Below are positions 1 to 25,000 of a DNA stretch of 64,000 bases, one piece after another (within the stretch, counting starts at the first letter, position 1; every line of letters starts with the position of its first letter). The notes beneath the pieces are model-generated. The model made no database searches and was not told the origin of the DNA. It saw only the letters and a program-made list of their open reading frames with translations. The stretch spans positions 155,436,001 to 155,500,000 of the forward strand of contig CM059431.1 in the NCBI GenBank assembly GCA_030390025.1, written 5' to 3'. Position numbers and translations under genes: made by a program. Origin of the DNA: Squalus acanthias. Its lineage: Eukaryota.

Positions 1-896
1 AGGAAGATCAGTTTTCATATCAGTCCTCCTTAATGGTCCATGTATGTTGTCCAGAATAACTTTGAGGAAAGCGTCAAACATTTATCCATTATTTTTGCCA
101 GAATTAGGATACATTCTGTGGAACGAATATCTGAATAGTCGCTTGGTCATGTCCCTCCCCTCCATTACCAACACTTGGAGTGCATCTGCCTAATCACATC
201 TAACCCCAACTCTTACCTTGAATTTCTCGCCTCGCCTCCAACCAGAAATCTCGCATTGCATGTGCTTCCCCGCCTCTATACCCTAACTGTTAATTGCGTC
301 TGAATGGTCACTCCAATTATCGGTCTTACTCCGTTTCGCCCGCCACTCATCGATTTGCTTCCCGGTTCCACATTTCTTGGCTCCGGAATTTCGGGTCACG
401 CATCTATTTACATCGAGCTTTACTCTGAATCATTGGAAGGGAAACGAACCTATGCTGCCAGCTTCCCTATGTCTACCGGATTTGCATTTCTAGATTAAGC
501 TTCAGATGCCATGTTCCTTTTAGTGCAAAGATTTCTGCTCACCTCTGCTAAGAGCTGTTTAGTCAGATGTTTGTGAATTTTACATTAAAAACTCTCACTA
601 TCTTAGGATACAAGCGATTGCTCGCTTCAAGACAAAATAAGCGTATTTGGATCATATCGACTCCAGTTTTAGTAAAATCATCTTATCAAATAACTTACTT
701 GCATTTGTTGTTTTCGCTTTTATTATGAGGATCCGCCTCACGATTTATTTCTACGGTATATGTTGTACCTCCGCCTTGGGGACACTCAAATTATCAGTGT
801 CCGTTGTTGCACTGGCTGGGGAAATCTGTGGCTCAGCCAGGTCAGACACCGAAAAGTCAGCCCTATTAAATCTAATCATATTCTTGTTATAATCAG

Positions 897-1044
897 AACC
901 AACAGGAAAATGCTGCTACAGAAACTGTGCTCAGCACGTATCCTAGCAGTGAAATCAATCCTACACACATAGTGAATGAAGATCTCCATCGACAGCAGCA
1001 AGAAAAAGAAAGAAGCGGATATGACAGAAGCGCACAGACATCCG
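897..1044 (+). CDS. Exon X1 (148 nt, phase 0->1): [49 protein letters not shown]
   Basis: ttcttgttataatcag| acceptor, tccg|gtcaga donor (weak); open frame; paralogous to X2/X3. Confidence 0.6.
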
Positions 1045-4000
1045 GTCAGATTACTCTTTGGGTTAAACAGATATATCCGCCAGTCTTTCAATTTAATCCA
1101 GTAACCTTCAAACAGTGTTTCAGTCTCTTGTCATTCTATTATGAATTCCTACTTATCTAAGCCACTTAAATCACATTTATGCAATTGACGTAACATAAAC
1201 ACTAAATCCTGAATACATTTTCAGAATTTACTTCTTGTCCTTCTGCCAAATCTTACACTCAACAATCTTTCAATCATGGCTTTCCGTTTCCTTTCTGCGC
1301 GTAAACTGTCGGTGACGCCTGAAATTCTGTTTAACTCGATCCATCCAGCCGGCTGTCGTGAAAGGGACCTCTGCAGACCGCCACCAAAAGACAGGTTTAA
1401 CAAAAACAATTACCTGAATGTGGAGCCAATATGTTCAAGCGTTCTCCTCCTGGCTTTAGATTAACACCACGGGATACTGCCGGACCTTACTCCCGATCGT
1501 TGCCTCCCTCCTTCTTCTCCTGTTCCCCCCCTTTCCTTTAATCTCCCTCTCTCGGTAGCCACTGCTTCCCGATCACTTTAATCTCTCCCCGTCGCTCCTT
1601 CCGAGAGCGTAGTCACTCAAATCATGGTCACTTGTCCAGCTTCCTGTGGAGGCGCAGCAAGTGTCTGCACCTCGCGGATCTGAGGTAAACGATGCCCCAG
1701 ACCCAATATCAGGATGGTCTCAGGCCTACGCCTTACAGCGCAGGGATCGTTCCCGGCGATAATTTTGGCTTTGTGTTATGATGTAAAATGGGCGCTAGCG
1801 AATCAAAAGCACGAGTGAATGTAGTCAATTGAATTCAAAATCGGTATAGATTAAAAGAGGCTGCCCTTTCACTTCAGCACGTTTTAAATTATCTCACAAT
1901 AGGAAAGTCAGAATCACAACCAACGTGCCCAGTTAGCGTCAGCCAGAACGAACCAATTTCTAGACCAGTGTCCATAAAATCACTGATTTTGCTGTAAGCC
2001 TTAATCCTGCAGTATGCTTTGCTTATGATGATGCTTCGGTTGCATACAGTAACCTGCCGTGAATTCCATTAAATCAGAGTACAGTTTATCCGATCCATCA
2101 ACAGAATAAGCAGAGTGACAGATGGAAATATCGATAATAGACACATTGATAGAGAGACAGACAAACAGCGAGACAGGAGGACAGACAGAGTGATATATTG
2201 ATAACTTTATTATTTTAATGACTTCCATCTTTGTTTTAGAAAATATTATAATGCAGTGGAAGTGAATTCTAAGTAATTGTTCCAAAGTATCGTCTATTAT
2301 TGTAACAACTTCGATGTTGTTGTTCCACTTGGAATTTATAGTGATTGATATTACTGAAGTTGGACCAACTGTATCGCCAGACGCTGACACTCAACAATCC
2401 AATAATACAGAATTATATCAGGTTAGAATATTTGTAGCGATTGAAGAACCTGCGAACGGTATCGGTGAAAATCTGCGCCATGAAATTGTATTCACTCGGA
2501 TAGAATCTGAGGTTTGTCTGACACAGATGGAACTAGACCTATCTTAACCTATGGTAATATTGACTCGACGTCTTTCGTTTAATACATGCAGTTTAATTTA
2601 CGCTTTCCCGTCCTTTCTTTTCTGAAGTAGGCGAGTTGAACTACGCAATTGTAACATAGGCCACCGCTGCCTCTGCACCATTTTACATGAGGGAAAAGGA
2701 TGATTGCTGAGATTTCCACTTCATTAACTAATTTGCGCTCGGCTGCATCTGAGACGCTAATTTGAACCGATTTTTGCCACGGAACTAATGCGGAGGCAAC
2801 TCCGTGAATCGGAATCGGCACTGTTGTTTGGTGGACTTTCGTGTACAACACCCACAACCACTGCGCTTCGATATTCAGGAATACCGTTTTACCTGGAAGC
2901 TCTAGAATATAATTGAAGATATTCAGGAAGATCTGTTTTCAGATCATTCCTCCACAATATTCAATGTTTGTTGTTCAGAACAACTTTGAGCAAAGCGTCA
3001 AACATCTATCCCTTATTTTGCCAGAATTAGGATACATTCTGTTGGACGAGTAACTTAATAATCCCTTGATCATGAGGCTGCACTCCACTCCCAACACATA
3101 GAATGCATCTGCTTCCTTAGCTCGAACCCTAACTCTTACCTTGAATACTGTAGCTTCTGATCCAATCAGAATTCTCTCATTGCACTTGCATCCCTGCCTC
3201 TATTACCTAACTCTTAATTGCGTTTCAATGGTCACTTAAATCATCAATCTTATTCCGTTTCGCCCGACACTCTCCGACTCGGTTCCCGGTTCCACCTTTC
3301 ATGACTCCGAAATTTGGAGCCATGCATGTATTTAAACCGAGCTTCAATATGAATAATTGAAATCGAGATATATCTATGAGTCCAGCTTTCCTATGTCTAC
3401 GGGATTTACATGTATTGATTATGCTTTAGTTGTTCTGTTCCTGTTTGTGCAGCGTTTCCTGCTCAATCTGCTCAGAGATGTCTCATCGGATGTTTGTGAA
3501 TTTTACGTTAACAAACTCTCACAGCACTAGGATACAAACGATTGGTATATTCAAGATAAAATAAGCTTTTTGGATCACATCGGCTCCAGTTTTAGTAAAA
3601 ACATCTTATCAAACAACTTTCTTGCATTTGTTGTTTTTAATTTTCTATTGGGATCTGCATCACCATTTATTTCTACGATATATGTTGTACCTCCGTCCTG
3701 GGGACACTAACATTATTAGTGTCCGTTGTAACAGTAGATGGGGAAATTTGTGGCTTTGTAAACTCAGAAGCAGAAAAGTCAGCCCTAATATATCTAATCA
3801 TAATCTTTTTATCATCAGAATCAGCAGGAAAATGTTACTACAGAAAATCTCCCCTGCACGGGCACTTACAGTGAGGTCAGCTTCACACTCACAGTGAATG
3901 AAGATCTACATCCACGGCTGCAAGAAAAAAGAGCAGGCGGATATGGCAGAAGCGCCCACATAACCGGTGAGATACTCATTGTGCTGAACAGATATATCTG

Positions 4001-7000
4001 CCAGTCTTTAAATTCAATCCCGTAAATCTCCATCAAAGTTTTCATTCTCTTGTCATTCTGTTAACTCATACCTATACTAGTGAGCTGAATTTTAGTCCAA
4101 ATGCTAAATAAATGTTATGAAATGACGTCTTGTCCTGCTGTCAAATCCCACACTCAATCTTGTTTCAACCATGGCTGTCCGTTTGCTTTCTCCTGTAAAA
4201 TGTATTTGACGCCTGAAAGTCTGGTTAACTCAATCCATCTAATCGGCGTTCGTTAAAGGGTCCTCTGCAGCACGCCAGCAAAATATAATTAAAACAAATA
4301 CTTAACTGAATGTGCAGCCATTAAGTTTACCGGTTCCATGCTTGGCACCACATTAAAACCACGGGAGCTTGCCGGCCACTACTCTCGTTTGCCTCTCTCA
4401 CTCTCCGATATTTGTCTCCCTCGCTCTACTACCGGTCCCACTCTCTTTCTGCCGACGACTTCTCTCTCGCACGCATCTAGTCGCCCCTCCTTCGCGAACG
4501 CATCGAAGTCTCCCAGCCGCCCCTTAATTATTAATAATTGAATTTCCCTCTTCGTTTGATTAATTATTTGATGCAGTGCAAAATATTTCTGTGTGCCTGG
4601 TCTTTATATTGTCGTTTATTGTAGCTGTCCGATATTGTTTGTTGCATTTGTACTTTATAGTGGATGATATTACTGGAGTTGTTCCAACTGTATCGACAGA
4701 CGCTGACACACAGGAATCCAAAGATATGGAATTGCATCGGGCTAGAATACTTGAAGCTGATGAAGAATCTGTGTCTGCTATCAGTGCAAATCTGCTTCAT
4801 AAAAATATCACTCCGATAGATTCTGAGGTATTTTTGACCGAAATGGAAATAGACCTCTGTTACCCTACTGTATTATAGACTTGACTTCTATGGTTTAATT
4901 ATAAGCAGTAGTTTTTACGCTTCCTCAGCCTTTCCTTCCTGAATTAGATGAGTTGTACTGCGCCATAGATACACGGACCACCGCTCTGAAATTTTACTTG
5001 AGGCAAAAGTAGGAATGCCGAGATTTCCATTTAATTGCCCAATTTCCTCTCGGGTGCGTATCAGACAATAATTTTGATAGATTTTTTTTAACACGAAACC
5101 AACACAGAGCTCAGTCGGTGAACTGGATCCAGCACTGCTCTGCAACAGCAAAGATATATTTTGCAAGAATTAGGCTACATCCTGTTGGCCGAGAAACTAA
5201 ATATTCCCTTGGACATGCCCCTTCCTCCATGCCCAACAGTTAGACTCCATCTGCTTCCCCACCTCTAAACCCAACTCTGACATTGCATTTATAGTTTCGC
5301 CTCCAAGCAGAACACTCGCATTTTATCTTCAACATAGGCTGTATACTCTAACTGATATATCGCATTTTAAACGACACTCCAATCTTTATCACATTCTGTT
5401 TTGCCGCCACTCTTGGACTTGCTTCCGGTTCCTTCATTGTTGGCTCCGTAATTTTGGGCCATGCGTCTATTTAGATCGAGATTTAATCTGATGGATTGGA
5501 TTCGAAATGTACCTGTAATCCCAGTTTTCCTATGTCTACTGCATTTAATTTTATTGATTTTTTTTCAACTCTCCTGCTGCTGTTTTTGCAGCGATTCCAG
5601 CTCAGCTCGGCTCAGAGCTGCCTCATCAGACATTTGTGAATTTTAGATTACAAGCTCTCTTATCCCGATTATAAAAGTAATTGCTTTCTTAAAGATAAAA
5701 TAAGACTTTTGGGATCATCTCGGCTCCATTTTTAATTAATTCACCTTATCAAACAACTTTATAGCATGTGTCGTTTTCGGTTTTTGCGGTTATGATGAGC
5801 GCCACGATATATTTCTACCGTAACTAGCGTATTCCGCACTGGGGACTCTAAAGGTACCATTGTCAGTTGCTGCACTGGCTGGGGAAAGATGTGGATCATA
5901 CAGTTCAGTAACCGGAAATTCAGAGCTATTGTATCTAATCTAATCATTTTCATACTATAATCAGAACCAACAGGAAAATGCTGCAACAGAAACTTTGGTT
6001 AGCACCGATTATTACAGTGACATCAGCCTCACACACACAGTAAATGAAGATATGGGAGCCGGCAGCTGTGGCATAAGCGCACACACATTGGGTAAGATTA
6101 CTCTTTCACTTGAACTGATATATCCGCCAGTGTTTGTATGCAATCCAGTCAACCTCAAGTTGTGTTTTAGGTCTCTTCTCATTCAGTTGTGGATTCCGAC
6201 TGATCTGAGACTGTTACCTCATCAGCAACAACAAAAACATCTTGTAGTTATATAGCGCCGTTAACGTTGTAAAACGGCCCAAGGCTTCACAGGAATGTTA
6301 ACTATACCAGTGAGGTAAATTATACACTCAATGTTATAGACATTTCAGAAATCACGCGCTGTCCGTCCGCCAAATTATGCACTCAACCTTAGTTCAAGCA
6401 TGGCTTTCCACTTGCTTTCTCCGATAAACTGTGACGCCTGAAGTTTTAGATAACTCGAGCCATCTAACACACGGCCGTTAAAGGGACCTCTTCAGTCCGC
6501 CACCAAATGAAAAGTTTTAAGAAAGAAAACGTACCTTTATGTAGAGCCAGTAACTTTGGTAGTAGTAGGGATAATGGGCAGGTACTCACATTGACAAGAT
6601 GTGACAAGTGGTGACCGGCAGGGATCTGTGTTGCAGCCTCAGCTATTCACAGTATTTATTAACGACATAGATGATTGCATAGCAAGTGCAACATACACAT
6701 TTATAGGTTACATAAAGGTAGAAGCAGTGTATCTGAAAGCAAAAATTACAAAGAGATATCGATAGATTAAGTGAATGTGCAAAACAGTGGCGAGTGGATT
6801 TAAATGTAGACAAATGTGAGCTCATCCAAATTGAACCTAGAAAGGATAGAACAGTAGTAGAGAAAATGCTAGAATCTATTATTAAGTACTTGGTAACTGA
6901 ACACTTAGAAAATAATAATAGGATTGGGCAGAGTTAAAGCGGATTTATGAAAGGGAAATCGTGTTTGACAAGATGAAGGCATCCATCAGCTGGATCCCGT

Positions 7001-10000
7001 GCTACACACATGTTAAATACTCAAGTAATTCACCAAAATCGTTACAAAGCATTATAAACAATAACTGTTTAACTGGCATGTGGCATAATATTAGCAAAAT
7101 GCCAAAATATATGCTGAATTCGATCAAGTATTGAGCACATGTCTCATTCAACTCTCTGCTGTGCTAATTGAAATGGTAAGAGACAGCATCAGCGTGTCTG
7201 TTCGGGTAATACTTGACAGTGCTGTGGTGCTCAATTAATTAGAACAGATTGAATGCTGGCAACATCACGTCTGAATCTTGAGCACCTTTCGCACCAATGG
7301 GGACTGTGGAGTCAGTGAGATATACCCGCCCTTAATCATCATATTTTAGATCCCTTTTGGAAAACAACACCATTTTACAGAAGCACAGAATCTTACAGCA
7401 CAGAATGTTGCCATTCGGCCCATCGCGCCTGTGATGACTCTTCAAAAGAGCTATTCAATTGGGCACGCAGCCCTGTTCTTTCCCCGTAGGCATGCAAGTT
7501 TCTCCCTTTCAACAATTTAGCCAATTCTCTTTTGAAATGGACTATTGAATCTGCTTCCACCAACTTTTCAGCCAGTGCATTCCAGATCACAATTCGCAGC
7601 GTAAAGGAAATTCTGCTCATCTCACTTCCTTTTTTTTGCCACTTAGCTTAGTTCTGTGCCCTCTTGTTACCGAACATTCTGCCACTGGCACATTGTCAGT
7701 AAGAAAATATTTGTATTCCTTTAAAAAAAAAACTGAAAACAAAAGAAATTCTTTTGTTTTTGCAGTTTGATGAAATTACATGTATGTTATAGCTCTACTG
7801 TTAGAAAGCTCTCAATTCCTTGATCAGAACGGATTTACCAAAATTAATAATTTTGTTGCCGAGCTGAGTGATGCCAAGTGAAAGAATGAGATGTTGGTTC
7901 GCCTCTGCGATTCCTCAAAATCTGAGTACTTCTTTTCAGCGGAACTGCTATGTTAATGCATCATCATAAGTCGGGAGGTATGGACAATGAGTGGGAATGT
8001 CTCTCCACCTGTTCTTATGCACATTTAAGCGATCTGTTACAATCCCCATAGTGAATTCTCCGATAGACTTGTCAGAAAATGCTGCGTGTTTTGGTCATGA
8101 ATTAAGTGTATTTGTGCACCTCAGTGCATCAAAAACCTAAATTTCCTGAAATAGAAATGAGATTGGCGCTACGGTCCCTAATTTTACCCTAAATTTATCC
8201 TTTTAATAACGCTCACGGCCTTGTTAGAAATATTTATGATGGATTCCTCTTTTCTGCAGAACACGTGTTTACATCATTGATCGGGCAGCCACTCAGCACC
8301 TACTTTTCATGAACAAAAGAAAGATGCTATGTTTGCTGAAAGTCTGAAATACAAAAAAATGATGGAAATACTCAGCAGATCAGGTAGCATCTGTGGAGAA
8401 AGAAACACAGTTAACATTTCAGGTCCTTGACATAACATCAGAACTGAAATAATTTAGAGATGTAACAGGTTTTCATCAGGTAGAGAGGCAGGGAAAGGGG
8501 AGGGGCAGGAAAGAATAAAAGTGAAGTTCTGTGATAGGGTGAAAGACAGGAGTTATTAAATGACAAAAGAGGTACACCTGCAGGCCCAGGACGCGTAGAG
8601 TCCGAAGCTCCGCAGACAAGTATGTTTGGATTTTTTTTTAATTTGTAGATGTATTGTTCTGGTACGCCTCCGACCGCAAAGTCAGGGACGTGGACTTTCT
8701 AATTTATAATGTTGTTGCATGGAGAAATCTTGTGGATTCGGAAAGTGCGGTCAGCAGCGAAGCAAATGTTTTTGTCACAGGCGCTGAAGAAAGCTGCCTA
8801 GATCTCGCGAGCTCTGTGGTGGGAGGTTTCCCTTTTGCAAGGCGTCTGTTATTTCAGTTAAGTGGGGATTCCCTAGAGTGATCTGCTCTAACGTCAAAAA
8901 TTTGTCTGAACAGCCAATCACTTTGTTGAATTCTCGAAGACAGAGAACTGAGAAATGACAACCTGCTTTTATCCAAACTTTTTAAAATGTTACAGTGAGC
9001 AAAACAAAACTTGGGGCTCTGAAATGGCGATGAGGTAATATCTGAAATATCAACAGCAAACGTTTTGAACCTTTCTTACAAAAATGAAATTTTTATCATA
9101 ATAGAGAGATTTGGCAATCCACAAAAGTAAATTTAGTTTATCAGGGCCATTATTTTGTTTATCAGGCTATACGCTGATGAAACCCCAGATAAACGTAATC
9201 CAACAGGCCCAAAAAGGGGAAAGGAAGTGCAACCAAAGCCAGAGCTCACTGGATGACGAAAGAGATAGAGAGTAAGATGTAGCAGAAAAATGGGGCGTAT
9301 GAGAAATGTCAGGTTGAGAATACAAGTGAAAACCAGGCTGAATATAGAAAGATCAGAGGGGAAGATACAATAAGAGGGGCAAAGAGAGAATATGCGAATA
9401 GATTGGCAGCTGACATAAAAGGGAATTCAAAAGTCTTCCTTATGTATATCAATAATAAACGGGTATTAAAAGGAGTGGTAGGGCAGATTAGGGACCACAA
9501 AGGAGACCTATGCATGGAGCCAGAGGTCATGGCTGAGGTATTACATGAGTATTTTCAGCTGTCTTTACCAAGAAAGAAGATGCCGCGAAAGTCATAGTAA
9601 AAGAGGAGGTATTTGAGATACTGGACGGGATATTAATTGATACAGAGGAGGTACGGGAAAGGGTGACTTTAATTAAAGTAGATCAGTCACCAGGACCGAA
9701 TGGGATGTATCCTAAAATGCTGAGGGAGGTAACGGTGGAAATTACGGAGGTACTGGCCATAATCTTCCAATCCTCCTTAGATACGGGGGTCTTGTCAAAG
9801 TACTGGAGAACTGCAAATGTTACACCCTTGTTCAAAAATGGATGTAAGGATAAATCCAACGACTACAGACCAGTCTGTTATACTTCAGTAGTGTGGAAGC
9901 TTTTAGAAACGATAATCCAGGAAAAAAGTATAGGTCAATTAGACAAGTGTGGATTAATTAAAGAAAGCCAGCTCGGATTTGTAAAAGGGAAATCGTGTTA

Positions 10001-13000
10001 ACTAACTTAATTGAATGTTTTGATGAGTAAACATGGAGGGTTGATGAGGGCAATGCGGTCGATCTGCTGTATATGGACTTTAAAAAAGACGATTGATAAA
10101 GTGTCACAGAATAGGCTTGCCAGCAAAGTTGTAGCCCATGGAGTAAGAGTGACAGGGGCAGCATGGTTACGAAATAGGCTAAGTGACAGGAAACAGAGTG
10201 TAGTGATGAACGGCTGTTTTTAGGACTGGAGGAAGGTACAAAGTGGAGTTCCCCAGAGGTCATTATTATTACGCTGCTTTTCCTGATTTATATTAATGAC
10301 TTGGACTTGTATGTACAAGTGCAAAATTTCAAAATTTGCAGATGACACAAAACTTGGAAGAATAACGAATAGTGAGGAGGATAGTGATATTCAAGAGGAC
10401 AGATACAGACTGAAGGAATGGGCAGATACGTGGCAGATGGAGTTTATCGCAGAAAAGTGTGAAGTGATACATTTTGTTAGTACGAACGAGGAGAGGCATT
10501 GTAAACTTAAGGGTACAGTCCTAAAGGTGGTGAACATAAGAACATAAGAAATAGGAGCAGGAGTAGGCCAATCGGCCCCTCGAGCCTGCTCCGCCATTCA
10601 ATAAGATCATGGCTGATCTGATCCTAACCTCAAATCTAAAGAACAGAAGAAGTAGGAGCAGGACCCGGCTCTAAGCCCCTGGGCCCGCTCCGCCATCCAC
10701 AGGGCCTTGACCGATCAAAACTCAGCCTCATGTCCAATTTCCTGCCCGCTCCCCGTAACCCCTAATTCCCTTTACTTCTAGGAAACTGTCAATTTCTGTT
10801 TAAAATTTATTTAATGATGTAGCTTCCACAGCTTCCTGGGGCAGCAAATTCCATAGACCTACTACCCTCTGAGTGAAACAGTTTCTCATCATCTCAGTTT
10901 TGAAAGAGCAGCCCCTTATTCTAAGATTATGCCCCCTAGTTCTAGTTTCACCCATCCTTGGGAACATCCTTACCGCATCCACCAGATGAAGCCCCTTCAC
11001 AATCACATATGTTTCAATAAGATCGCCTCTCATTCTTCTGAACTCCAATGGGTAGAGTCCCAATCTACTCAACCTCTCCTCATATGTCCATTCCTCATCC
11101 CCGGGATTAACCGAGTGAACCTTCTTTGTACTGCCTCGAGAGCAAGTATGTCTTTTCTTAAGTATGGACACCAAAACTGTATGCAGTATTCCAGGTGCGG
11201 TCTCACCAATACCTTATATAACTGCAGCAATACCTCCCTGTTTTTATAATCTATCCCCCTAGCAATAAAAGCCAACATTCCGTTGGTCTTCTTCATCACC
11301 TGCTGCACCTGCATACTATCTTTTTGATTTTCTTGCATTAGGACCCCCAGATCCCTTTGTACTGCAGTACTTTCCAGTTTCTCGCCATTAAGATAATAAC
11401 TTGCTCTCTGATTTTTCCTGCCAACGTGCGTAACCTCACATTTTCCAATATTGTATTGAATCTGCCAGGAACAGAGGGACCTGCTTCTTTTTCTGCCGGT
11501 TGATAAACCTGTAAAAACATACGAGATCATTGGCTTTATAAAAAGAGGCTTAGAGTACAAAAGCAAGGAAGTTAGGATGAATCTTTATAAAACAGTTTCG
11601 GCCACAGCTGGGGTATTGAAAAGGGTGCACCAAAGATTTACAAGAACGGTTCCATGAATGTGAGACTTCAGTTACGTGAATAGACTGGAGAAGTTGGCGT
11701 TGTTCTCCTTCGAGAAAAGACGGTTGAGAGTAGATTTGATAGAGGTGTTCAAAATCAGGAGGGGTCGAGGCAGTGTAGCTAGGGAGGAACTGTTCCCATT
11801 GGTGGAATGGTCAAGAACCAGCGGACACAGATTTAGTGTGATTGGCAGAAGAACCAAAGTCGACATGAGGGAAGAAATTTACGCAGAGACTGATTATGAT
11901 TTGGAATGCACTTCCTGAAATGGTGATTGGGGCAGATTCAATCGTGGCTTTCAAAAGGGAATTGCATAATTGCATGAAGGAAAAACGCAGGGCTACGGGG
12001 AAAAGGCAGGGTAAGGGGCGAGCTTAACTGGACTTGCAGAGGGCTGGCACGGGCTCGACGGGCCGAATGGTCTCGTTCTGTGCTGTAACCAATCTATGAT
12101 TCTATGATTCTATTTAGTATGGAGTTTAATCGTGGTATTAACGCGGAAATGCCCACGTTTCCGTCAGTTTCATTGATTTCAATGATTACACCGATCAGCC
12201 GCTACGGGTGCGGGGTGGTGGGGGCACTGTGCTGGGATTGGGGGGAGTTGTGGGGAGCAGAGCGCAGCCAGTGTCGGAGCAGTGAATGACTGACCACAGA
12301 TACAGGATTTTAGCATTTAGATATGCATGCGCTACATACAAAATTCGCGGTCAGTTTCAAAGTGGTAGTATCGACGAACGCAAATACCAGCCCAGGGTTC
12401 TTAATGGCACATTTTTTGCGGCCGCAACTTGTGTTTTGGAGGTGGCGTAGCGCCTGTATGGGCCGCGCGACTTCCGGGGTGCGTGTAGCGCATGCGCGAA
12501 TACATGGAATGTGCAATCTGTCAAGAAAATTCTTGAGTGATCCAAAGCATCCGAGGGAAATGGACATCCGCCGGCTGAGAGTTGGGCTGTTTGCCCAACT
12601 TAAGCTCAGCGAATGACCGTGAAATTATTAGGTCTGTTTAGAATGTTGTCTGCCAAACGTTGATGCTAGACAGTTCAGGACACAACGGATGTGTCGGAAT
12701 CGTCTGTAGAGAGTCAGAGTAACATTTGCAATATAAAGGGTCAAATAATCTGGAATCATGGGCCAGAGTATGCTCGGGTACCGGGAGTGTAGAGCGTCAG
12801 AATACCATGGCCGCTAAAAGGAAAGAACAAACTAAAAAATAACGAGACTCCATAGATAAATAAATCAAAAGGGAACAATTGAGTGTAAGGAAAGAGGCAC
12901 ACATTAAATACATAGGCAGCAGGGGAGTGCATGATAAGAGAGAATACGAAAAGATTATAAGAGAACTCAAAAAAATAATTAGGGATGCAAAGAGGAACTA

Positions 13001-16000
13001 TGACATTAAATTACTAATGATCATAAAACAACATAGTGACATATTTTATAGGCACATCAATAAAACAATGGAAGGTTGGGATGAGAACAGGTCCATTAAG
13101 GGATAGTCAGGATAATACCAGATGTAACGATAAGGTGCTGGCAGAAATATTAAATACTTATTGTGCTTCAGTATTTAACAGGGAAATAGAACAGGAGGAC
13201 ATGACATTGGATGATGAGATTATGAATGAGATAAGAGCATTTAAAGTAAAAAAGGTGATATATTAATAAATCTATCAAACTAAAAGGGGATAAAACCCTC
13301 GGATTGCATCCACGCATTTTTAAAAAATCTAGGGAAGAGATAGCAGAGGCATTACTACGCATATATAATAATTTGTTAGAAAAAGGTATAGTGCCAGAGG
13401 ACTGGCGGATAGCTAACGTATTATCGATATTTAAGAAGGGGTATAGAACATGTCCATGTAATTATAGATCAGTCAGCTTAACATCGATGGTAGGAAAAAT
13501 AATGGAATCCGTACTAAAGGAGAAAATAGAAGAACATCTAGAAACCTAAAATATAATAATGAGTAGTCAACAAGGATTTCAAATGAGAAATAAATAAATA
13601 AAATGCAACACATGCCCTTAAACCTTCCCTCTTCCCACTGTCCAGGGCCCCAAACACCCCTTGCAGGTGAAACAGCGATTTACTTGTACTTCCTGCATTT
13701 AGTATACTGTATTCGCTGCTCACGATGTGGTCTCCTCTACATTGGGGAGACCAAACGCAGATTGGTTGACCATTTTGCGGAACACCTCCGTTCAGTCCCT
13801 TAGGGGGACCCCGAACTCCCGGTAGCCTGTCACTTTAATTCTCCGCTCCACTCCCACTCTGACCTCACCGTCCTCGGACTATTACACTGTTCAACGGAAG
13901 CGCAGCGTAAGCACGAGGAACAGCATCTCATCTTTCGTTTAGGCACCCTACAGCCCTCTGGACTCAATATCGAGTTCAACAATTTTACATCATAACCTAG
14001 CACCTATCACATTTATATTTTATTTTTTCATCCACCCTTTTGTTTCCCCCCCCCCTTTTTTTTCCTCATAGAAGCTGGCAGCTGTCCTTCATTCTGCCAG
14101 TGCATTTCACACTTCATTTAGCCTCAACCTGTTACATCAACACCTCCTCTTGTATTTATTATCTCTTAACGTCTCTTGATGTCTCTTCATCTCTCCTTTT
14201 GTTCTTTCATCCCCTCCCCCATTTCCCTGCTTTAACTTGCTTAAATCTATTTCATTTCCTGCTTTTTTCCAGTTCTGACGAAAGATATTCGACCTGAAAC
14301 GTTAACTCTGTTTCTCTCTCCAAGGATGCAGCCTGGCCTGCTGAGTTTTTCCAACGTTTTCTGTTGTTATTTCAAAAGAGGAAGTCTTGCTTGAGCATCT
14401 TTATTGAATATTTTTAAGAGGTAACTTTGTTAGCAGACAGTGGTAATATAGCAGATGTAATTTATCTGAATATTCAAAAGGCATTTAATAATAGATTGAT
14501 GAACACGGGCAGAGAATGCAGAGTCTGGGGAGAAGTTTCTGAATGGATTGCTGGCTGACTTCAGTAAAGAGCAGCTATTATCAGTGGCAGAAGGTGTTCC
14601 ACAAGGATCTGTGCTGAGACCACTGCAGTGCACAATTTACATTAACGATTTAGACTTAGGAATCAAAAACACAATTTCTAAATTTGCAGATCACACTTAA
14701 TCTGGGGGGATAGTCAATACTAAGGAGGACTGCAACAAGTTACAATAGGACATTAATGAACTTGCAGAATGGGAATATAGTTGGCAAATGAAGTTCTACA
14801 CAGATAAATGTGAGGTATTACATTTTGGTAGGAAGAATAGTGAGTTCACTTATCAATTTAAGGGTTTGAGTCTAGGTGGCGTAGAGGAACAAAGGGATCT
14901 AGCAGTACAAATGCACAAATCACTGAGAGCTGCGGCGCAGGTTAGCAAGGCCATAAAAAAGCAAAACCAAGCATTATGGTTTAATTCTAGATAGATAGAA
15001 TTGAAAAGTAGGGAAGTTATGCTAAATATGTATGAAAACTTGGTTAGACCACACTTAGAGTACTGTGTACAGTTCTGCTCGCCATATTATAAAAATGATA
15101 TAGAGGCACTGGAGTAGGTGTAGAGAAGACTTCCAATAATGGTACCAGAAATGCGAGAGTATACATATAAGGAAAGTATGAACAGACTGGGTCTCTTTTC
15201 TTTTGAAAAAAGAAGACTGAGGGGTGACCTAACAGAGTTCTTTAAAATTATGAAAACGTTTGATAGAATGGATACAGTGAGAATGTTTCCACTTGTGGGG
15301 AAGAGCATAACTAGAGGCCATCAATATAAGGTTGTCAGCAAGAAATCCAATAGGGAATTCAGAAGAAACCACTTTAGCCAAAGAATGGTGTGAATGTGGA
15401 ACTCGTTACAACAGGGAGTGGTTGAAACGAATGGTATAGATGCATTTAAGAGGAGGCTAGCCAAGCATATGAGGGAAAAGGGAATAGAGGGTTATGCGGA
15501 TAGATTTAGATGAGGAAAGACGGGAGGACGCTCCTGTGGAGCATAATTGCCGGCATGGACTGGTTGGTCCGAAAGGCCTGTTTCTGTGCCATATATCCTC
15601 TGCAATTGTACGTAAAGGGTCAGATACCCTGGCACTTGAGGAGCTCCGCGCCCAATAGCCCAAGGTACTAGGACCTTCTGCGGGCCCAATATTCCAGGGT
15701 ACTCTAACACTCTAGAGGTCAATGAGCCCAGGATATCTGACTCTCTATATAGCCTATGGCGATCAGACACTCAAAAGTCCCAATAGCCCAGCGAACTTTG
15801 AGACAATACAAATAAATTTCTCCGGAGCACTGCAAACATTTGCAGACCCAGTAGCCCAAGGTACGCTGACACCCTGGAGGCCCAATATTGCAGGGTACTC
15901 TGCCGGTCTAGAGTTACAGTAGCCCAGCATAAGCTGACCATGTACAGGCCTAATATCCCAGCGTAGGTTGAACCCCTAAAGGTCCATTTGCTCAGGGAAC

Positions 16001-19000
16001 TGTGACAATCTGCAGGCCCAAAAGCACAATATACTCTAATCCTCTGCAAATCCCAGGGCAGCCTGACCCTCTGCTTATCCGATGATCCCCTGACACAATA
16101 GAGACGTAATTGCCCAGGGTACACAGACCCTCCGCAGGCTCAATATCTCAGGGTACTCTGGACACTTAGAGGCCAAATGGCCCAGTGTACTATGAACAGA
16201 TAGAGGCCGAATGTACCAGTTTACTATGACCACGACATTGACATCAGATTTGCGGACTCAGATCCAATAGCGTTCCAGTAGTCCAGGCTACACTGTCCCT
16301 CTAACGTCCCATTAGCCCGGAGTACTCTGACCCTCTGTACATGACAGGGTTGTCTGGCACTATATACGCACAAAATTACGGAGTACATGGACATTCTGCC
16401 GGCTCAATATCCCAAGGTAATCTGGCCCATGACAGCCAATGGCAATCACAACCTCTGCAAGCCCTATAGCCCAGATGCAATCTTCCCGTCTGCGTAGCAC
16501 ACGGTACATTCAGCCTCTACATGTCCAATAGTCTTAGGGTATTCTGACGCTCTGCACGCGCAATAGCTCAAGCTATACTAGCCCTCTGCATGCACAATAC
16601 CACAGTTACTCTGCCCTTTTGCACAGCCAAGTGTCCTCTGTCCATCTACTGGCCCAATTTTATCAGGGTCTCTGAAAACCTCTGGATCCAATAGCACAGA
16701 GACTTTGACCCTGTCTATTACCTAGGCTACTCTAAACCTCTACAGGCCCAATGCCCCACGGTATACGACCCCCTATATAGCCGTTTGTAATCTGTCCACC
16801 GACAGTCCCAATAGCCCACGGTACCCTGAAACTCAGCAGACCAAAACGCCGAGGGCAATCTGACATCAGGCCCAATATCCCAGGGTAATCTGAACCTCTA
16901 CATACCCCGGAAAAAATCTGGAGCTTTGAGACCCAATAACCCAGAGTACGCTGACCCTCGATAGGCCGAATAGTCCAGTGTACTCTGCCGCTCTATAGGC
17001 GCTATATCCGAGCGTATGCTGACCAAGTGCATGCCCAATAGCCCGGCGTGTACCAAAATTATGAAAGAAGTCCCACAAACTGGTCAAGTAACTATATTTA
17101 TACTCAAAAAATCAGACATTTAATCCAGAGTCCTAGAGACCTTCAGCACAGCTTCCGCATCGTTAGTTATTTTGTCCCCCAAGGATCTATCCCTGGCCAC
17201 CCTTCTATTTCTCATCTACATGCTGCTCCGTGAATACTTTATCCGAAAACACAGCATCAGTTTCCATATCTAACCTGGCGATAGCCAGCTCGAACGTATC
17301 AACTCTTCTCGCGACCTCTCCACTGTCTCTAAATTGTCAGACAGCCTGTCCGACATTCCGTTCTGAATGAGCAGTATTTTTATCGAATTAAATATTGAGA
17401 AGATAAAAGCCATTGATTTCGCTCCTCACCACAAACTCCGTTAACTAGCCATTGACTTCAACCCTCTCCCTAATATCTATCTGAAATAGAGGTCGCGGGT
17501 TTCGGATGTACTGGCGAAGAAGCCTTGACGAGTTGCCGCAGTGCATCTTGTGGATGGTCCACTCTGCAGCCACTGTGTTGCATTGGGGAAGGGACTGCAT
17601 GCTACTAATTTATAAAGGCTTGTGTGAGTTTTATACTCGATTCCGTGAAAAACCCTTTGGCACCGCCCGTTATAAATTTCAGATTGGACAGAGAGCCGCT
17701 CCTCCTGTGCAAATTGACCTTTTGTTCCACGGATCCGTGATGTCCTAATCAACGGACCTACTTTTATTCCTTAATCCACATTGATCATTTGTTAAATGCT
17801 ACTACTCATCCTCAAATCTCTCGCCTACCTTATCTCTAAAGTCGTCTTCACATCTTCTCTTTTGCACTCCAGTCCCTCATCTCCCCTCACTGTGCTCTCC
17901 AGTGTACCAGTTCATCAGTTCCGAACTCCAGACACAGAACTCATCCACACCGACTGGAACTCAGCTCCTACGAGCTTCCATCTCTGTACTTCTTACTTAT
18001 TTAAACAACGACCACATTTAGCCAGGCCTGTGCAGTTTCTCTTAACTCCAGCAGAACAGTCAGCGTTAATTCTGAATACCAACTCTGTAAGGCACCGCTG
18101 GCAGTGTTCCTTGCTTGAAAGACTCTCGAAAGAACATCTGTCGCGATAGCCGTTAGATCAGAGTATTCACTGTTTCATAGCATTTATGTTAATATGTTCT
18201 CATTTACACCTTCACAGAAAATGCAGATACTGAAATATTACCAACGTTGGCGAGCTACACGGATTTCCAGCTCCGCAGAGTTATCGTTTGCTACCGTCAG
18301 AGACTAGAACAGTCAATTGAAGAGGTAGTGGAGGCCGTTAGTCAGTCGCTTGTAGATGCAAACCTGCTCACTGAAACAAATCATAAGGTATGTTTCATCT
18401 ATGTTAGAATCGTATAGTGTTAAATGAGTCCAACGATTGACTATTTAGACAGAGAGTATTCTGTGCAACACAACGATATAAGCAGTACATAACGCTGTAC
18501 TGGTTTAACTTCAGTAGACAATCTGAAATTATTGTCCTGTGCAAGTGATTTGAAATACTCTTCTGAGATATTACTGTTAAATTAATTTTTCATGAAATGT
18601 CAATGCAATCATTCATAATAAGAAAACAGTACCCCATCGACGAAGCGTGAATTTTAATGTCAGCGTTCTGTGCCCAATTATCGTCAGCTGCTTCATCAAT
18701 GACCATCCTTCCTGACAATCAATGGCTTTACCATCGGCGTTCTACCACCATGAGTGTCTCGGTCATCACCACTAAAACCAGCTTTGAGAAATTACTGCTA
18801 AACCTCTTGCAGTTAACGTTATTCCAGTAGCCAAGCCACTCGAAATGAGTAATTGAATGAGACAAAACATGCAGCGCAAGCAACACACATCATCATTACA
18901 GTCCAATGGAAAACCAGGTGCTAAGTCAAAACTGTTACAATCACATAATTCAAATCTCATTTGAATAATTAACTGACACTTACGAACTTAACAGTGTGAC

Positions 19001-22000
19001 ATTTCCTACGATCACGGCCGAGATGCTCTGCCCATTCTGCATCAAAACGGCCGTGCGTTTCGAATTGGACTGAGCTATTGCCGGTAGCGCGGACTGAACT
19101 ATTTCTGCTGAGCATGTCCAATTGGTTTCTTTCATTCTACATCTTGCTATGTCCCACCCCTACCTAGGCCCAAAACTCAGGGACGTCAACACACCTAGCC
19201 TCTCCCGAGGCCACATCCTCTCACCTCAGGAACGCCATAATCTCGCATTTCATAAATTAACCCTGATCTAATCTATGATGTTTATCTGCTTCCTTTCTCC
19301 AATACCTTCTCAATTATGCAATACAAATGTAAACAGACATAGTACTGTGAATAAAGCTGGGAATTTCATGGTACAGTTTGTCTGAGGGTATGATATAATG
19401 AAGTGATCGACGTGGCTTATATAAGGGCAGGATTGGGAGATGAATTGTGCTCTGTTACCTGAAGATCATGGTAACTTATGTTGTATGCAAATAGGGAGCA
19501 TTAATTAATAACAGACTGAGTTGCAGAATAGGATGTTCAGAAATGATATAAGGAATGATTCAAAATAGAAATTTATAAGTTTGGTGTAACACCATAATAA
19601 TATAACTCTTTGTCTATAAGGCGTCCGTTGTCTTACAAAAAATAATGGAAATGCGATAGAAAAAAAGTTATATAGACAAATTGGAGATAATGCAGCAATA
19701 ACAGTAACAGTGATTGGTGACTATAAATATACGAAGTACAGAAGCAACCAAAGTGGCGAAGGGAGGCCGTGGTGTCTGAAGCTTTTCCAGGACATTATTC
19801 AGCTGGCTACAATTTTGGACGACAAGAAAGGATTGAGCATTTCATCTATTTCTTGAAATGGGCAGGGGCTAGTCGGTGAGGTAAGTGCAGTGAAATATCT
19901 ACCAATATTATAGTTAGTATTCACATGAATTATAAAATGTTTCGTTACAATCAAAATAATAAATATATGAAAGGTATAAATCTAATGTCAACGAGGCTCA
20001 GTTATATTGAGGCGGATATGATCAGATAATATCGTGGGTAGGCAATAGGAAAATAGCAAAAATAAGTTTCCCATACAAGATACACAAATCACACGGGAAT
20101 GAAAGCAGTGCAGGGCAGACACGAATTACTTGGGCTTCCAGAGAAAATGAAATAAACAATAGATTTAAAATTGAATGTCGGAGTGTAGGGCTAGTTATAT
20201 GAAACAAATATAGAAGCCTCGGTAATATAGTGAACATTTAATAGATGAATGAGTGGCCGGTGACAGAGTTCGAGACATTGATCATATTCCATATACACTT
20301 CAAGGAAAAGAGTTACATAAAGAAAAGAGCTGTGTAGAGATGAAATGGGAATGGTTCATATAGAGGACGAAGGATTCACTGAAAAGCTATTGGTACTGTT
20401 TTGATGAATTACTGTGATAATTGGAATGAATGAAAAACTCATTGAAGTCAATGGAAAATAAATTCAGACGCGAGTATAACTGGGCTTCCAAATCGCTTCA
20501 GCACGTTTGACCCAATTAGCCAACTCCGGCAAACACCTTTTGCCCATTCTTTAAGGTTGGCAACTTGTGCAATCTGAGATTCTAAAAAACTAATTGTGAT
20601 CTTTCAAAAATATTAAGTTCCTTAACTAACAATAATTTTTGGTTTTGATCGTATCCTATACCTGAAACCGTACCTTTGTGCCTTGATTTTGCACTTTACT
20701 CCTTTCCATCAATCAGTTGTTATTTATAATGAGAGAAAATCCAGAGCCGTGGGTGTCTCAAAGCTGCTCCTTTCTATCTCTGTAACTTCTTCGAATCCTA
20801 CAACCTGTCGAGATTCAGGCGCTGGCCCAATTCTTAGCTCTTGTGCATCCCCCATTGTCATCGCTCCACCATTGATGGCCTTGCCTTAAGCGGTTTAGAC
20901 CCTGAGCTTTAGAATTCCATCCCAAAACCACCATGAATCTCTAACTCTCTCTTCTATAAGACTCTCTTTAAATCTACTCTATGATCAAGCTTTGGTCACC
21001 TGTCCTAATATCTCCCTCTGATCCTTGGTGTAACTTTTTTTTGATAACAATCACTTTGCAACGCTTTGGGACGTTTTACTACGCTAGTTCTTGTTGTTTC
21101 TACTTAATTCTCATTGCAGGTACGACTCCTGTCTGACTAATGGCGTATCTTCCTTTTATTCGCTTATGGGATCTGGGCGTCTTTGGCAAGGACAGCATTT
21201 ATTGCTTATCCCTTAATTGTTTTCTGCATTAACTCCCGATTCTGAGCATTTCATCTCTCTCCGAAGGAAAGCTAGAAATAGAAAAGACGTTTCTTATCCG
21301 AGTTTGTACATTATTTCACTATATATGATTGCAATATACATTTTTGTTAGGAAATCCGTTCCCTAGCTGAATGTCACCGCAAAAGCGATGCATCCCAATT
21401 CATTTTCGATACCGTGCTGGAAAAGGGAGCTCGGGGAGAAAGAAAAATGTGGAACATATTGCTTCAACTGCAGAACACCAAACCCAAGCTGAAAATGACA
21501 TTGTCAGAGATACAGAATAGATGTACAGAGGGAAAAGGTGATCTTGAAGGTTAGTGGTATCCAAATCTAATTTTCCGTTGAATAACAAAGTTTTATTTAG
21601 GATGAGCACCATTTTTACTCGTTTATGTGATGTGGGCGTCGCTGCCAAGGCCAGCATTTAATACCCATCCCTAGTTGCCCTTGAGAAGGAGGTGGCTAGC
21701 CGCTTTCGTGAAACGCTGCAGTCCATGTAGTGAAGGTTCTCCCACAATGCTGTTGGGGAGGCAGTTCCATGAGTTTGACAAAGCGACAATGAAGGAAAGG
21801 CTGAATACTTCCAAGAGAGGATGGTGTGTGTCTTGGAGGGGAATTGGAAGTGATGGTGTTCCCAGGCGCCTGATACTCTTGACCTTCTAGTTGGTAGAGG
21901 TCGCGTGTTTCGGAGGTACTGGCGAAGACGCCGTGACGAGTTGCCGAAGTGCATCTTGTACATGGTCCACTCTGCAGCCAATGTGTGGCAGTGGGGAAGG

Positions 22001-25000
22001 GACTGGCTGCTACTAATTTATACAGGCTGGTGCAAGTTTTATACTCGATTCCTTGAACGAACTTTGACACTCCCCGTTATAAATTTCAGCTTGGACAGAG
22101 CTCCACTACTCCTATGCAAACTCACCTTTTGTTCCACGGATCCGTGATGCCCTCATTAACTGACCTACTTTGATTCCTGAAACCACATTGATCATTTGTG
22201 AAAGGCTCCTACTCATCCTTAATTCTCTCGCCTACTTTATCTCTAAAGCCGTCTTCACATGCCCTCTTTTGCACCCCAGTCCCTCCTCTCCCCTTGCTGT
22301 GGTCTCCAGTGTACCAGTTCATCAGCTCCAAACTCCAGACATAGAACTCATCCCCACAGAATGGAACTCAGCTCCTAAGATTTTCAATCTCTGTACTTCT
22401 TACTTATTTAAACAACGACCACACTTAGCCAGGCCTGGGTTGTTTCTCTTAACTCCAGCAGAACAGTCAGCGTTAATTCTGAATACCAGCTCTATAAGGA
22501 ACCACTGGTAGTGTTCACTGCTTGAAAGACTCTCTAAAGAACTTCTGTCGCGATAGCCGTTAGTTCAGAGTAATCACTGTTACATAGCATTTATGTTAAT
22601 CTGTTCGCATTCACACTTTCACAGAAAATGCAGATACTGAAATATTACCAACGTTGGCGAGCTACACGGATTTCCAGCTGCGCAGAGTAATCGTTTGCTA
22701 CCGTCAGAGACTAGAACAGTCAATTGAAGAGGTAGTGGAGGCCGTTAGTCAGTCGCTTGTAGATGCAAACGTACTTACTGAAACAAATCATAAGGTATGT
22801 TTCATCTATTTTTAGAATCGTATAGTGTTGAATGAGTCAAACGATTTACTATTTATAGATATAGAGTCATAGAGTTGTACAGCACAGAAAGAGGTCCTTC
22901 GGCCCACCGTGTCCGGCGCCGGCCATCAAGCCATGTCTATTCTAATCCCATTTTGTAGCTCTTGATCCGTAGCCTTGTATACTATGGCGTTTCAAGTGCT
23001 CATCTGAATGCTTCTTGAATGTTGTTAGGGTTCCTGCCTCTCCCACCCTTTCAGGCAGTGAGTTCCAGTTTCCAACCTCCCTCTTGGTGAAAAAGTTTTT
23101 CCTCTAATCCCCTCGAAACCTCCTGCCCCTTATCTTGAAACTATGCCCCCTTGTTATTGACCCCTCTACTAAGGGGAAAAGTTCATTTCTATCTACCTTA
23201 ACTATGCCCCTCATAATTTTGTACACCTCAATCAGGTCCCCCCTCAGCCTTCTCTGCTCTAAGGAAAAGAACCCCAGCCTGTCCAGTCCCTCTTCATAGC
23301 TGTAGCGCTGCTACCAAGGAAACATCCTGGTGAATCTCCTCTGCTCCATGTCTAATGCAATCAAATCCTTCCTATAGTGTGGCCACCAGAACTGCACACA
23401 GTATTCCAGCCGTGGCCTAACTGGCGTTTTGTACAGCTCCATCATAACCTCACTGCTCATATATTCTATGCCTGGGCTGGAGATAGCGGATGCACTAAGT
23501 ATGATTTTTCAGTATTCATTAGACTCGGGAAGAGTGCCCATGGATTGGAGGGTAGCTAACGTTACCCCACTATTCAAAGAGGGGGGTAGGGAAAAAGCAG
23601 GTAATTACAGACCTGTAAGCCTTACATCAGTTGTGGGCAAAATGCTGGAGTCCATCATTAAGGATGAAATAGCGGAGCACTTAGCAAATGCGGACAGGAT
23701 AGGACAGAGTCAACATGGATTTACAAAGGGTAAATCGTGCTTGACTAATCTATTGGAATTTGTTGAGGGAGTAACTGGTAAAATAGATGGGGGAGAGCCA
23801 GTAGATGTGGTGTACCTGGACTTCCAAAAGGCCTTCGACAAGGTCCCACATAAAAGATTAGCATGGAAAATTGAAGCTCATGGGATAAAGGGGAAAGTAT
23901 TGACGTGGATAGAGAACTGGCTGTCAGATAGAAAACAGAGAGTTGGAATGAACGGCTCATTTTCTGAATGGCAGGCAGTAACAAGTGGGGTACCGCAGGG
24001 ATCTGTCCTGGGTCCCCAGCTGTTCACAATTTACATTAATGACCTGGATCAGGGAGTCGGATGCAGCATTTCCAAATTTACAGACGACACTAAACTAGGA
24101 GGGGGGGTGGGCTCAGAGGAGGAGAACAGGAAGCTCCAGAGCGATTTGGACAGACTGGGTGATTGGGCGGATAAATGGCAGATGCAATATAATGTGGACA
24201 AGTGCGAAGTTATCCACCTTGGGTGCAGGAACGGGAGGGCAAATTATTATTTAAATGGCAATAAATTGGGAGAGTGGGAAGTACAGAGAGACCTGGGTGT
24301 TCTTGTACACCAGTCACTGAAGGCGAGCATGCAGGTGCAACAGGCGGTCAAGAAGGCAAACGGTATGCTGGCCTTCATAGCAAAAGGGTTGGAATACAGG
24401 AACAGGGATACCTTGCTGCAGCTGTACAGGGCACTGGTGAGACCACACCTCGAGTACTGTGTACAGTTTTGGTCGCCTCATCTGAGGAAAGATGTTCTTG
24501 CCATGGAGGGGGTGCAGGGGCGATTCACCAAGCTGATACCAGGAATGGCGGGATTGACCTATGAGGAGAGACTATGTAGTTTAGGGATGTACACACTGGA
24601 GTTTAGAAGATTGAGAGGGGCCCTCATAGAAGTGTATAACATTCTGACAGGTCTAGACAGACTAGATGCAGAAGGAATGTTTCCCTTGGCGGGTGAGAAC
24701 AGAACTAGAGGACATAATTTAAGGATAAGGGCTAAACCATTTAGGACAGAAATGAGGGGGAATTTCTTCACTCAGAGGGTGGTGAACCTGTGGAACTCAT
24801 TGCCACAGAGTGCAGTTTACGCCAGCTCATTAAATATATTTAAGAGGGAATTAGATATATTTCTACAGGCAAAAGGGGTTAAGGGTTACGGAGAGAAGGC
24901 GGGGACGGGATACTGAATTGGAGGATCAGCCATGATCTCATTAAATGGCGGAGCAGGCTCGAAGGGCCGGATGACCTACTCCTGCTCCTATCTTCTATGT

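Follow-up and report, generated by a model that had tools for sequence, protein, structure and literature searches.

Do the exons that lie upstream of a tandem CARD array in the Squalus acanthias genome belong to the same gene as that array, and what would they contribute to its protein? The locus was analysed in a 64-kb stretch of DNA, positions 155,436,001 to 155,500,000 of CM059431.1 (the window), with all exons on the + strand. Five upstream exons of two alternating types, X1-Y1-X2-Y2-X3, are followed across a long gap by seven A and six B exons, each A+B pair corresponding to one CARD unit, and together these make a chain of 18 exons (Table 1). An earlier interpretation made from the letters alone (the sequence-only reading) had placed both arrays in one gene. 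Our analysis indicates that X and Y are likely coding exons of the same cartilaginous-fish poly-CARD NLR-family gene as A and B, used as an acidic, unfolded N-terminal arm. The family itself is already predicted in shark genomes; new here are the link of X to a sawfish protein, the selection test and the broken acceptor of exon A5.

The five X/Y exons were found as previously described, with AG/GT ends, phases alternating between 0>1 and 1>0 and no in-phase stop, and stops were present in 10 of their 10 off-phase frames. Their length differences had been given as multiples of three. This holds for the net changes (-3 in Y2, -21 in X3), but the DNA aligner spread the loss in X3 over two gaps of non-triplet length (5+16 or 8+13), and it appeared as one 7-residue gap in the protein alignment. 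When joined, the 18 exons give 3144 nucleotides with 0 stops, and the final G of X3 is phase-compatible with the initial AA of A1 across the proposed 12.1 kb, measured as 12,126 nucleotides. Joins of any X to any later Y or A were open in 24 of 24 cases. When X was considered as the tail of a leader exon, in-frame stops were found in the 240 nucleotides before each X. A further Y exon probably lies just before the window, as positions 1 to 896 resemble the introns that lead from Y to X.

The two arrays are connected by the homology of Y to A. Exons Y1 and A have equal length and phases and align without gaps at 74-81 identical bases of 170. When Y1 was compared with all 170-nucleotide windows on both strands, the seven best matches after Y1 and Y2 were A1-A7 in register (background 44 +/- 6). 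Profile comparison of Y gave E 9e-6 against A and E 9e-8 against an alignment of 19 family repeats, and a profile made from Y alone matched the first halves of CARDs in proteins of sharks and rays, with a best E of 7e-5 in a set of 18 proteins. The two exon types are about 46% identical. These results do not support the view that X/Y is unrelated to the CARD array and identify Y as a decayed copy of exon A. Y lacks a complete CARD with an intact core and contains the first half alone; hydrophobic core positions are kept at 7 and 6 of 11 in Y1 and Y2, and polar residues occupy three consecutive core positions at which 84-100% of the 19 family repeats have a hydrophobic residue. X was evaluated as a decayed B exon and rejected, with no detectable similarity. 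As Y is only half of the domain, has lost its core and is followed by an X unlike B, it cannot complete the CARD fold. X was also not accepted as a decayed A exon, the likeness being weak and limited to the first 17 residues (E 0.03), with shuffle z values of up to 4.5 for X3 and none for X1. The start of X (897-926) weakly resembles the start of A (18217-18235) in both DNA and protein.

X could be linked to the same family through an NLR model from the sawfish Pristis pectinata (XP_051865153, P0016). In a gapless profile, X residues 1-29 matched two repeats of this protein, 279-307 and 363-391, with scores of 31 and 40, and also matched its isoform P0019. The next best other protein among 21 scored 19, and neither 31 nor 40 was reached by any of 5000 shuffles of the region. 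A reverse search with the sawfish repeats returned X3, X1 and X2 as the top of the six-frame window, a step that is partly circular. P0016 had been retrieved by the A/Y (CARD-half) profile, which contains no X sequence, and its two X-like repeats lie ahead of its CARD-like and NACHT matches. The protein differs from the window gene in its repeat period (84 residues versus 106 here), in having one CARD and no half-CARD between the repeats, and in its predicted helix before the CARD. The homology of Y to A and the link of X to a sawfish CARD-NACHT NLR together favour a single gene, in agreement with the sequence-only reading.

To compare the exons with their surroundings we aligned the homologous introns of the X/Y units, in pairs that share copies. 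Their identity is 72-80%, and of the 54 gaps that fall in 3669 aligned bases, 50 are non-triplet. Copies of the X/Y exons share 74-78% identity and differ in net length by 0, -3 and -21. The contrast between exon and flanking intron indels, which had been suggested as a check, came out in support of coding exons, with net triplet changes in the exons and mostly non-triplet gaps in the introns. Neutral decay was simulated at the intron rates and left all five X/Y exons intact with P about 2e-5 (splice sites 0.06, stops 0.057, frameshifts 0.005), a crude estimate that used a star tree, present-day starting sequences and pairs sharing copies. The homologies of X and Y also back this conclusion. 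The ratio of nonsynonymous to synonymous substitution rates (dN/dS) was 1.01 (confidence interval 0.58-1.91) for X/Y and 0.43 (0.29-0.68) for A/B. The amino acids of X/Y evolve near neutrally without detectable constraint, and A/B is under purifying selection. Retention of the frame while the residues drift suggests that X/Y serves as a spacer or flexible arm. The X/Y array had been proposed as the older of the two, and this is borne out by the identity of its copies, 74-78% versus 87-97% for the A/B exons.

The identity of the A/B unit was assessed through its relatives. Searches with the A/Y profile returned 2 and 16 proteins. The true relatives are models from sharks, rays and chimaeras, and several of them have NACHT; four frog zinc-finger proteins (P0004, P0008, P0015, and P0018 from a further search) and a repeat protein (P0013) were treated as low-complexity matches and left out of the trees. 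Three automatic RefSeq models of NLRP3-like NLRs, Scyliorhinus torazame XP_072354261 (P0001), Mustelus asterias XP_078087540 (P0003) and Cetorhinus maximus XP_078390056 (P0005), share a roughly 113-residue CARD-containing repeat in 2-5 tandem copies, most of them 38-55% identical to A+B, and NACHT follows in P0001 and P0003. A search with P0001 returned itself as the sole match. The window array differs from these in its at least 6.5 young copies, and by profiles the three proteins contain no X-like or half-CARD repeats; each has a predicted membrane helix, and none was found in the window. Pfam CARD (PF00619) matched 0 of 11 single-exon translations and matched P0001 with E 3e-10. The second repeat of P0005, which shares 55% identity with A+B, gave a high-confidence predicted model that matched the ARC CARD with Z 11.8 and a root-mean-square deviation of 2.0 (87 aligned), and likewise the CARDs of NLRC4, NOD1 and Apaf-1. 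Foldseek alone gave no E below 0.001 for it. Judged on this relative's repeat, as distinct from the window's own spliced domain, the A+B unit is predicted to have a CARD fold. The window stops within the intron that follows A7, so the array probably continues beyond it.

Table 1. Coordinates of the exons and selected introns in the window
Feature	Position	Strand	Remarks
intron	1..896	+	matches Y-to-X introns; blastn 1-1510 vs 2925-4399, 76%; nhmmer
exon X1	897..1044	+	148 nt, phase 0>1, acidic peptide repeat
exon Y1	2342..2511	+	170 nt, phase 1>0, decayed N-terminal half of CARD, A homologue
exon X2	3819..3966	+	148 nt, phase 0>1
exon Y2	4661..4827	+	167 nt, phase 1>0, decayed half-CARD, one codon less
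exon X3	5965..6091	+	127 nt, phase 0>1, 21 nt less
putative intron	6092..18217	+	12,126 nt; homology to other post-X introns ends ~6552
exon A1	18218..18387	+	phase 1>0, N-terminal half of CARD
exon B1	21351..21549	+	phase 0>1, C-terminal half of CARD and linker
exon A2	22625..22794	+	
exon B2	31562..31760	+	
exon A3	32824..32993	+	
exon B3	35630..35828	+	
exon A4	36886..37055	+	
exon B4	40220..40418	+	
exon A5	41473..41642	+	GG acceptor
exon B5	48807..49005	+	
exon A6	50066..50235	+	
exon B6	54158..54356	+	
exon A7	60217..60386	+	window ends within next intron

The X/Y part had been described as acidic, rich in Ser/Thr and probably disordered. It is acidic (net -29 over 253 residues), and the Ser+Thr excess proved modest at 20% versus 15% in A/B. 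Disorder remained the probable state by composition: FoldIndex was negative for 5 of 5 X/Y exons, near zero for three, and the charge-hydropathy plot put X/Y on the disordered side, narrowly for three exons. X/Y thus probably adds a floppy acidic arm, derived in part from a broken half-CARD, to the front of the protein. By analogy with general NLR biology, such an arm could screen or space the CARDs.

Two rounds of internal exon amplification had been proposed for the locus, which is too few: at least three events are needed, an ancient half-CARD copy, the Y-X amplification and the A-B amplification. In the history that we favour, an old duplication would have produced an upstream copy of the first CARD exon but not of the second half, and the copied half (Y) would then have lost its hydrophobic core. 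The frame-preserving Y+X unit would have been amplified first (at least three times) and the A+B unit after it (at least six and a half times). Y and X would be kept in frame because downstream coding depends on it, while their residues drift, and would form an acidic, unfolded arm or spacer that precedes the folded CARDs, each unit contributing about 106 residues. As any X joins any later Y or A in frame, exon skipping would alter the length of the arm and leave the protein unbroken. The locus would then show a folded signalling domain becoming a spacer, with a half-CARD copied, stripped of its core, amplified and kept for its frame alone.

Several observations weigh against X/Y as working exons of the poly-CARD gene. 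Besides the crudeness of the decay simulation, its frameshift term alone gives P = 0.08 at the lowest intron indel rate, and a dN/dS near 1 is equally expected of dead exons. The donors and acceptors of X/Y score low, as do the B acceptors, by a crude splice matrix. Neither a start codon nor a leader exon was recognised within the 64-kb window, and no NACHT was found in it; the window ends inside the array, and the NACHT-LRR part would lie past it. X joined directly to A was not found in any annotated protein examined, a homologue search with X gave no match among 71 candidates (weak evidence), and in P0016 the predicted membrane helix falls between the X-like repeats and the CARD. Acceptors are AG in 17 of the 18 exons and A5 (41473) has GG at 41471-41472, so that the 1048-codon chain of the sequence-only reading, although open throughout, cannot be canonically spliced as written. 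An in-frame AG at 41480-41481, 9 nucleotides into A5 and in poor context, would give 1045 codons and a unit 3 residues shorter. Skipping A5+B5 or B4+A5 would leave 925 codons, and skipping A5 alone breaks the frame. One CARD unit may therefore be shortened by 3 residues or skipped because of the GG acceptor.

The 12-kb gap bears on whether X/Y instead belongs to a different gene upstream, either a paralogue or a truncated gene, and one that stops short of A1, which we consider quite unlikely. The phase match would then reflect the shared ancestry of Y and A, since phase compatibility is expected of any family member, and AATAAA occurs 9 times in the gap, which also has a CpG-rich patch (12001-12500; C+G 0.52, CpG observed/expected 1.07), perhaps a small transposon or promoter; a terminal exon or promoter may lie within the gap. 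Beyond about position 6552 most of the gap consists of repeats, and no membrane-helix exon was found in it. Against a separate gene, the gap yielded no third Y, no B or other CARD second half, no NACHT and no convincing phase-compatible exon. An open frame selected through X3 also implies later coding sequence, and A1 is the next recognisable exon, in the place expected of the next Y. We infer that X3 splices to A1. A similarly low probability attaches to the gene, or its X/Y part, being a recent pseudogene or mostly skipped, with frames that record past selection. The mutated A5 acceptor, the dN/dS of about 1 and the weak splice scores of X/Y fit that view, but 0 stops and 0 net frameshifts were found in 18 exons, A/B is under purifying selection and splicing could avoid the A5 defect without loss of frame. 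That X/Y represents chance open frames in duplicated non-coding DNA is extremely improbable. Exon and intron identities are alike (74-78% versus 72-80%) and 8-16% of 147-nucleotide windows taken from introns show no stop in a given frame, but this explanation is largely refuted by the homologies, as Y matches A in register and X matches the sawfish repeats, and by the low probability of intactness in the decay simulation.

Three further features were noted in the gap. A 170-nucleotide candidate exon of phase 1>0 at 8649-8818 was rejected, its identity to Y/A (48-49 of 170) being at background level. A degenerate short-period tandem array occupies about 15600-17050. A hydrophobic frame at 17137-17259 was considered as a helix exon and discarded, as its motifs read as decayed reverse transcriptase of a long interspersed nuclear element.

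The arm of the preferred poly-CARD gene may be cytosolic or extracellular: the product would be either a poly-CARD NLR of the cytosol that carries an acidic arm, or an NLR anchored in the membrane. It is possible, though doubtful, that the gene encodes a single-pass membrane NLR with X/Y, and perhaps the whole CARD array, outside the cell and the helix beyond the window; this would refine the preferred reading by shifting where the arm sits. A strongly hydrophobic 19-residue stretch, predicted as a membrane helix, is present in 4 of 12 scanned relatives (P0001, P0003, P0005, P0016), which additionally carry a hydrophobic N-terminal stretch; both features were called by hydropathy scanning of automatic gene models, a point against this reading. 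Three of these four hold the repeats closest to A+B (46-55% versus 34-38% in those without a helix). CARD repeats precede the helix in P0001 and P0005 and follow it in P0003, and the X-like repeats precede it in P0016. The stretches of P0001, P0005 and P0016 are homologous, with a held-out helix recovered by the helix profile in 3 of 4 trials (leave-one-out rank 1). The highest identity to A+B is that of a pre-helix repeat of P0005, whereas in the tree A+B groups with those P0003 repeats that follow the helix (94/93 on a long branch, unstarred), which argues against an outer position. No membrane-helix exon was found in the 64 kb, where the best profile hit had E 0.33. N-glycosylation motifs number 3 versus 3.3 expected in X/Y and 0 in A/B, and X/Y does not resemble a mucin-like stalk (Ser+Thr 20%, Pro 3.6%). 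A more specific version is unlikely: a single-pass surface NLR with an outer part of decayed half-CARDs and at least 7 CARDs, tunable in length by splicing, joined through one helix to a cytosolic CARD-NACHT-LRR. If true, an intracellular signalling fold would have been reused outside the cell and built up by exon duplication.

The best helix hit, which lies within the X1-Y1 intron (about 1460-1626) and had been considered a relic exon, was rejected (E 0.33; P = 0.19 versus local shuffles; outside the top 20 frameshift-tolerant window matches). Pyrimidine-rich stretches at 1460-1626 and 4345-4545 have translations like the start of the relatives' membrane helix, a likeness that was not significant.

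Among described systems the nearest analogy is with zebrafish NLR-B30.2 proteins, whose groups 2-4 carry N-terminal exon-encoded peptide repeats of about 30 residues (Howe et al. 2016, PMC4852459). There, too, NLRs are lengthened N-terminally by repeated exon-encoded peptides, an analogy only; as that account presents it, the zebrafish repeat is one peptide motif, whereas here a two-exon unit containing a half-CARD precedes a CARD array. For Anthozoa, NLRs bearing 3-5 transmembrane domains at the N-terminus are reported in an account that calls all other metazoan NLRs cytosolic (PMC5094078). They would be a membrane-bound precedent relevant to this gene only if its helix lies outside the window, and they are multi-pass and cnidarian, unlike the shark and ray relatives with one predicted helix and a variable N-terminal region. 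In the whale shark an expanded new family of NLRP-related NLRs has been reported (Tan et al. 2021, PMC8455134). This expansion near the NLRPs is likely, by inference, the context of the window gene; we found no mention there of tandem CARDs, of exons for half a CARD or of membrane helices. In the literature searched, with subscription papers and supplements largely outside it, we found no account of tandem-CARD, half-CARD or membrane-anchored NLRs in cartilaginous fish, and in the literature searched on these genes a membrane-anchored NLR arrangement was not found described for jawed vertebrates.

Other duplicated sequence was observed in and around the A/B array. An 8.1-kb duplication (89%) is nested within it, at 25016-33119 and 42334-50361, and includes an inserted repeat; the expansion of A/B was therefore itself multi-step. 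Just upstream of A7, a 73-bp tandem repeat in about ten copies (59337-60219) forms the end of a large insertion. A roughly 100-bp element at about 1800-1910, in the X1-Y1 intron, is shared with five A-B introns (20437, 30643, 39309, 47887 and 52511; best E 9e-5) and is probably a common interspersed repeat.

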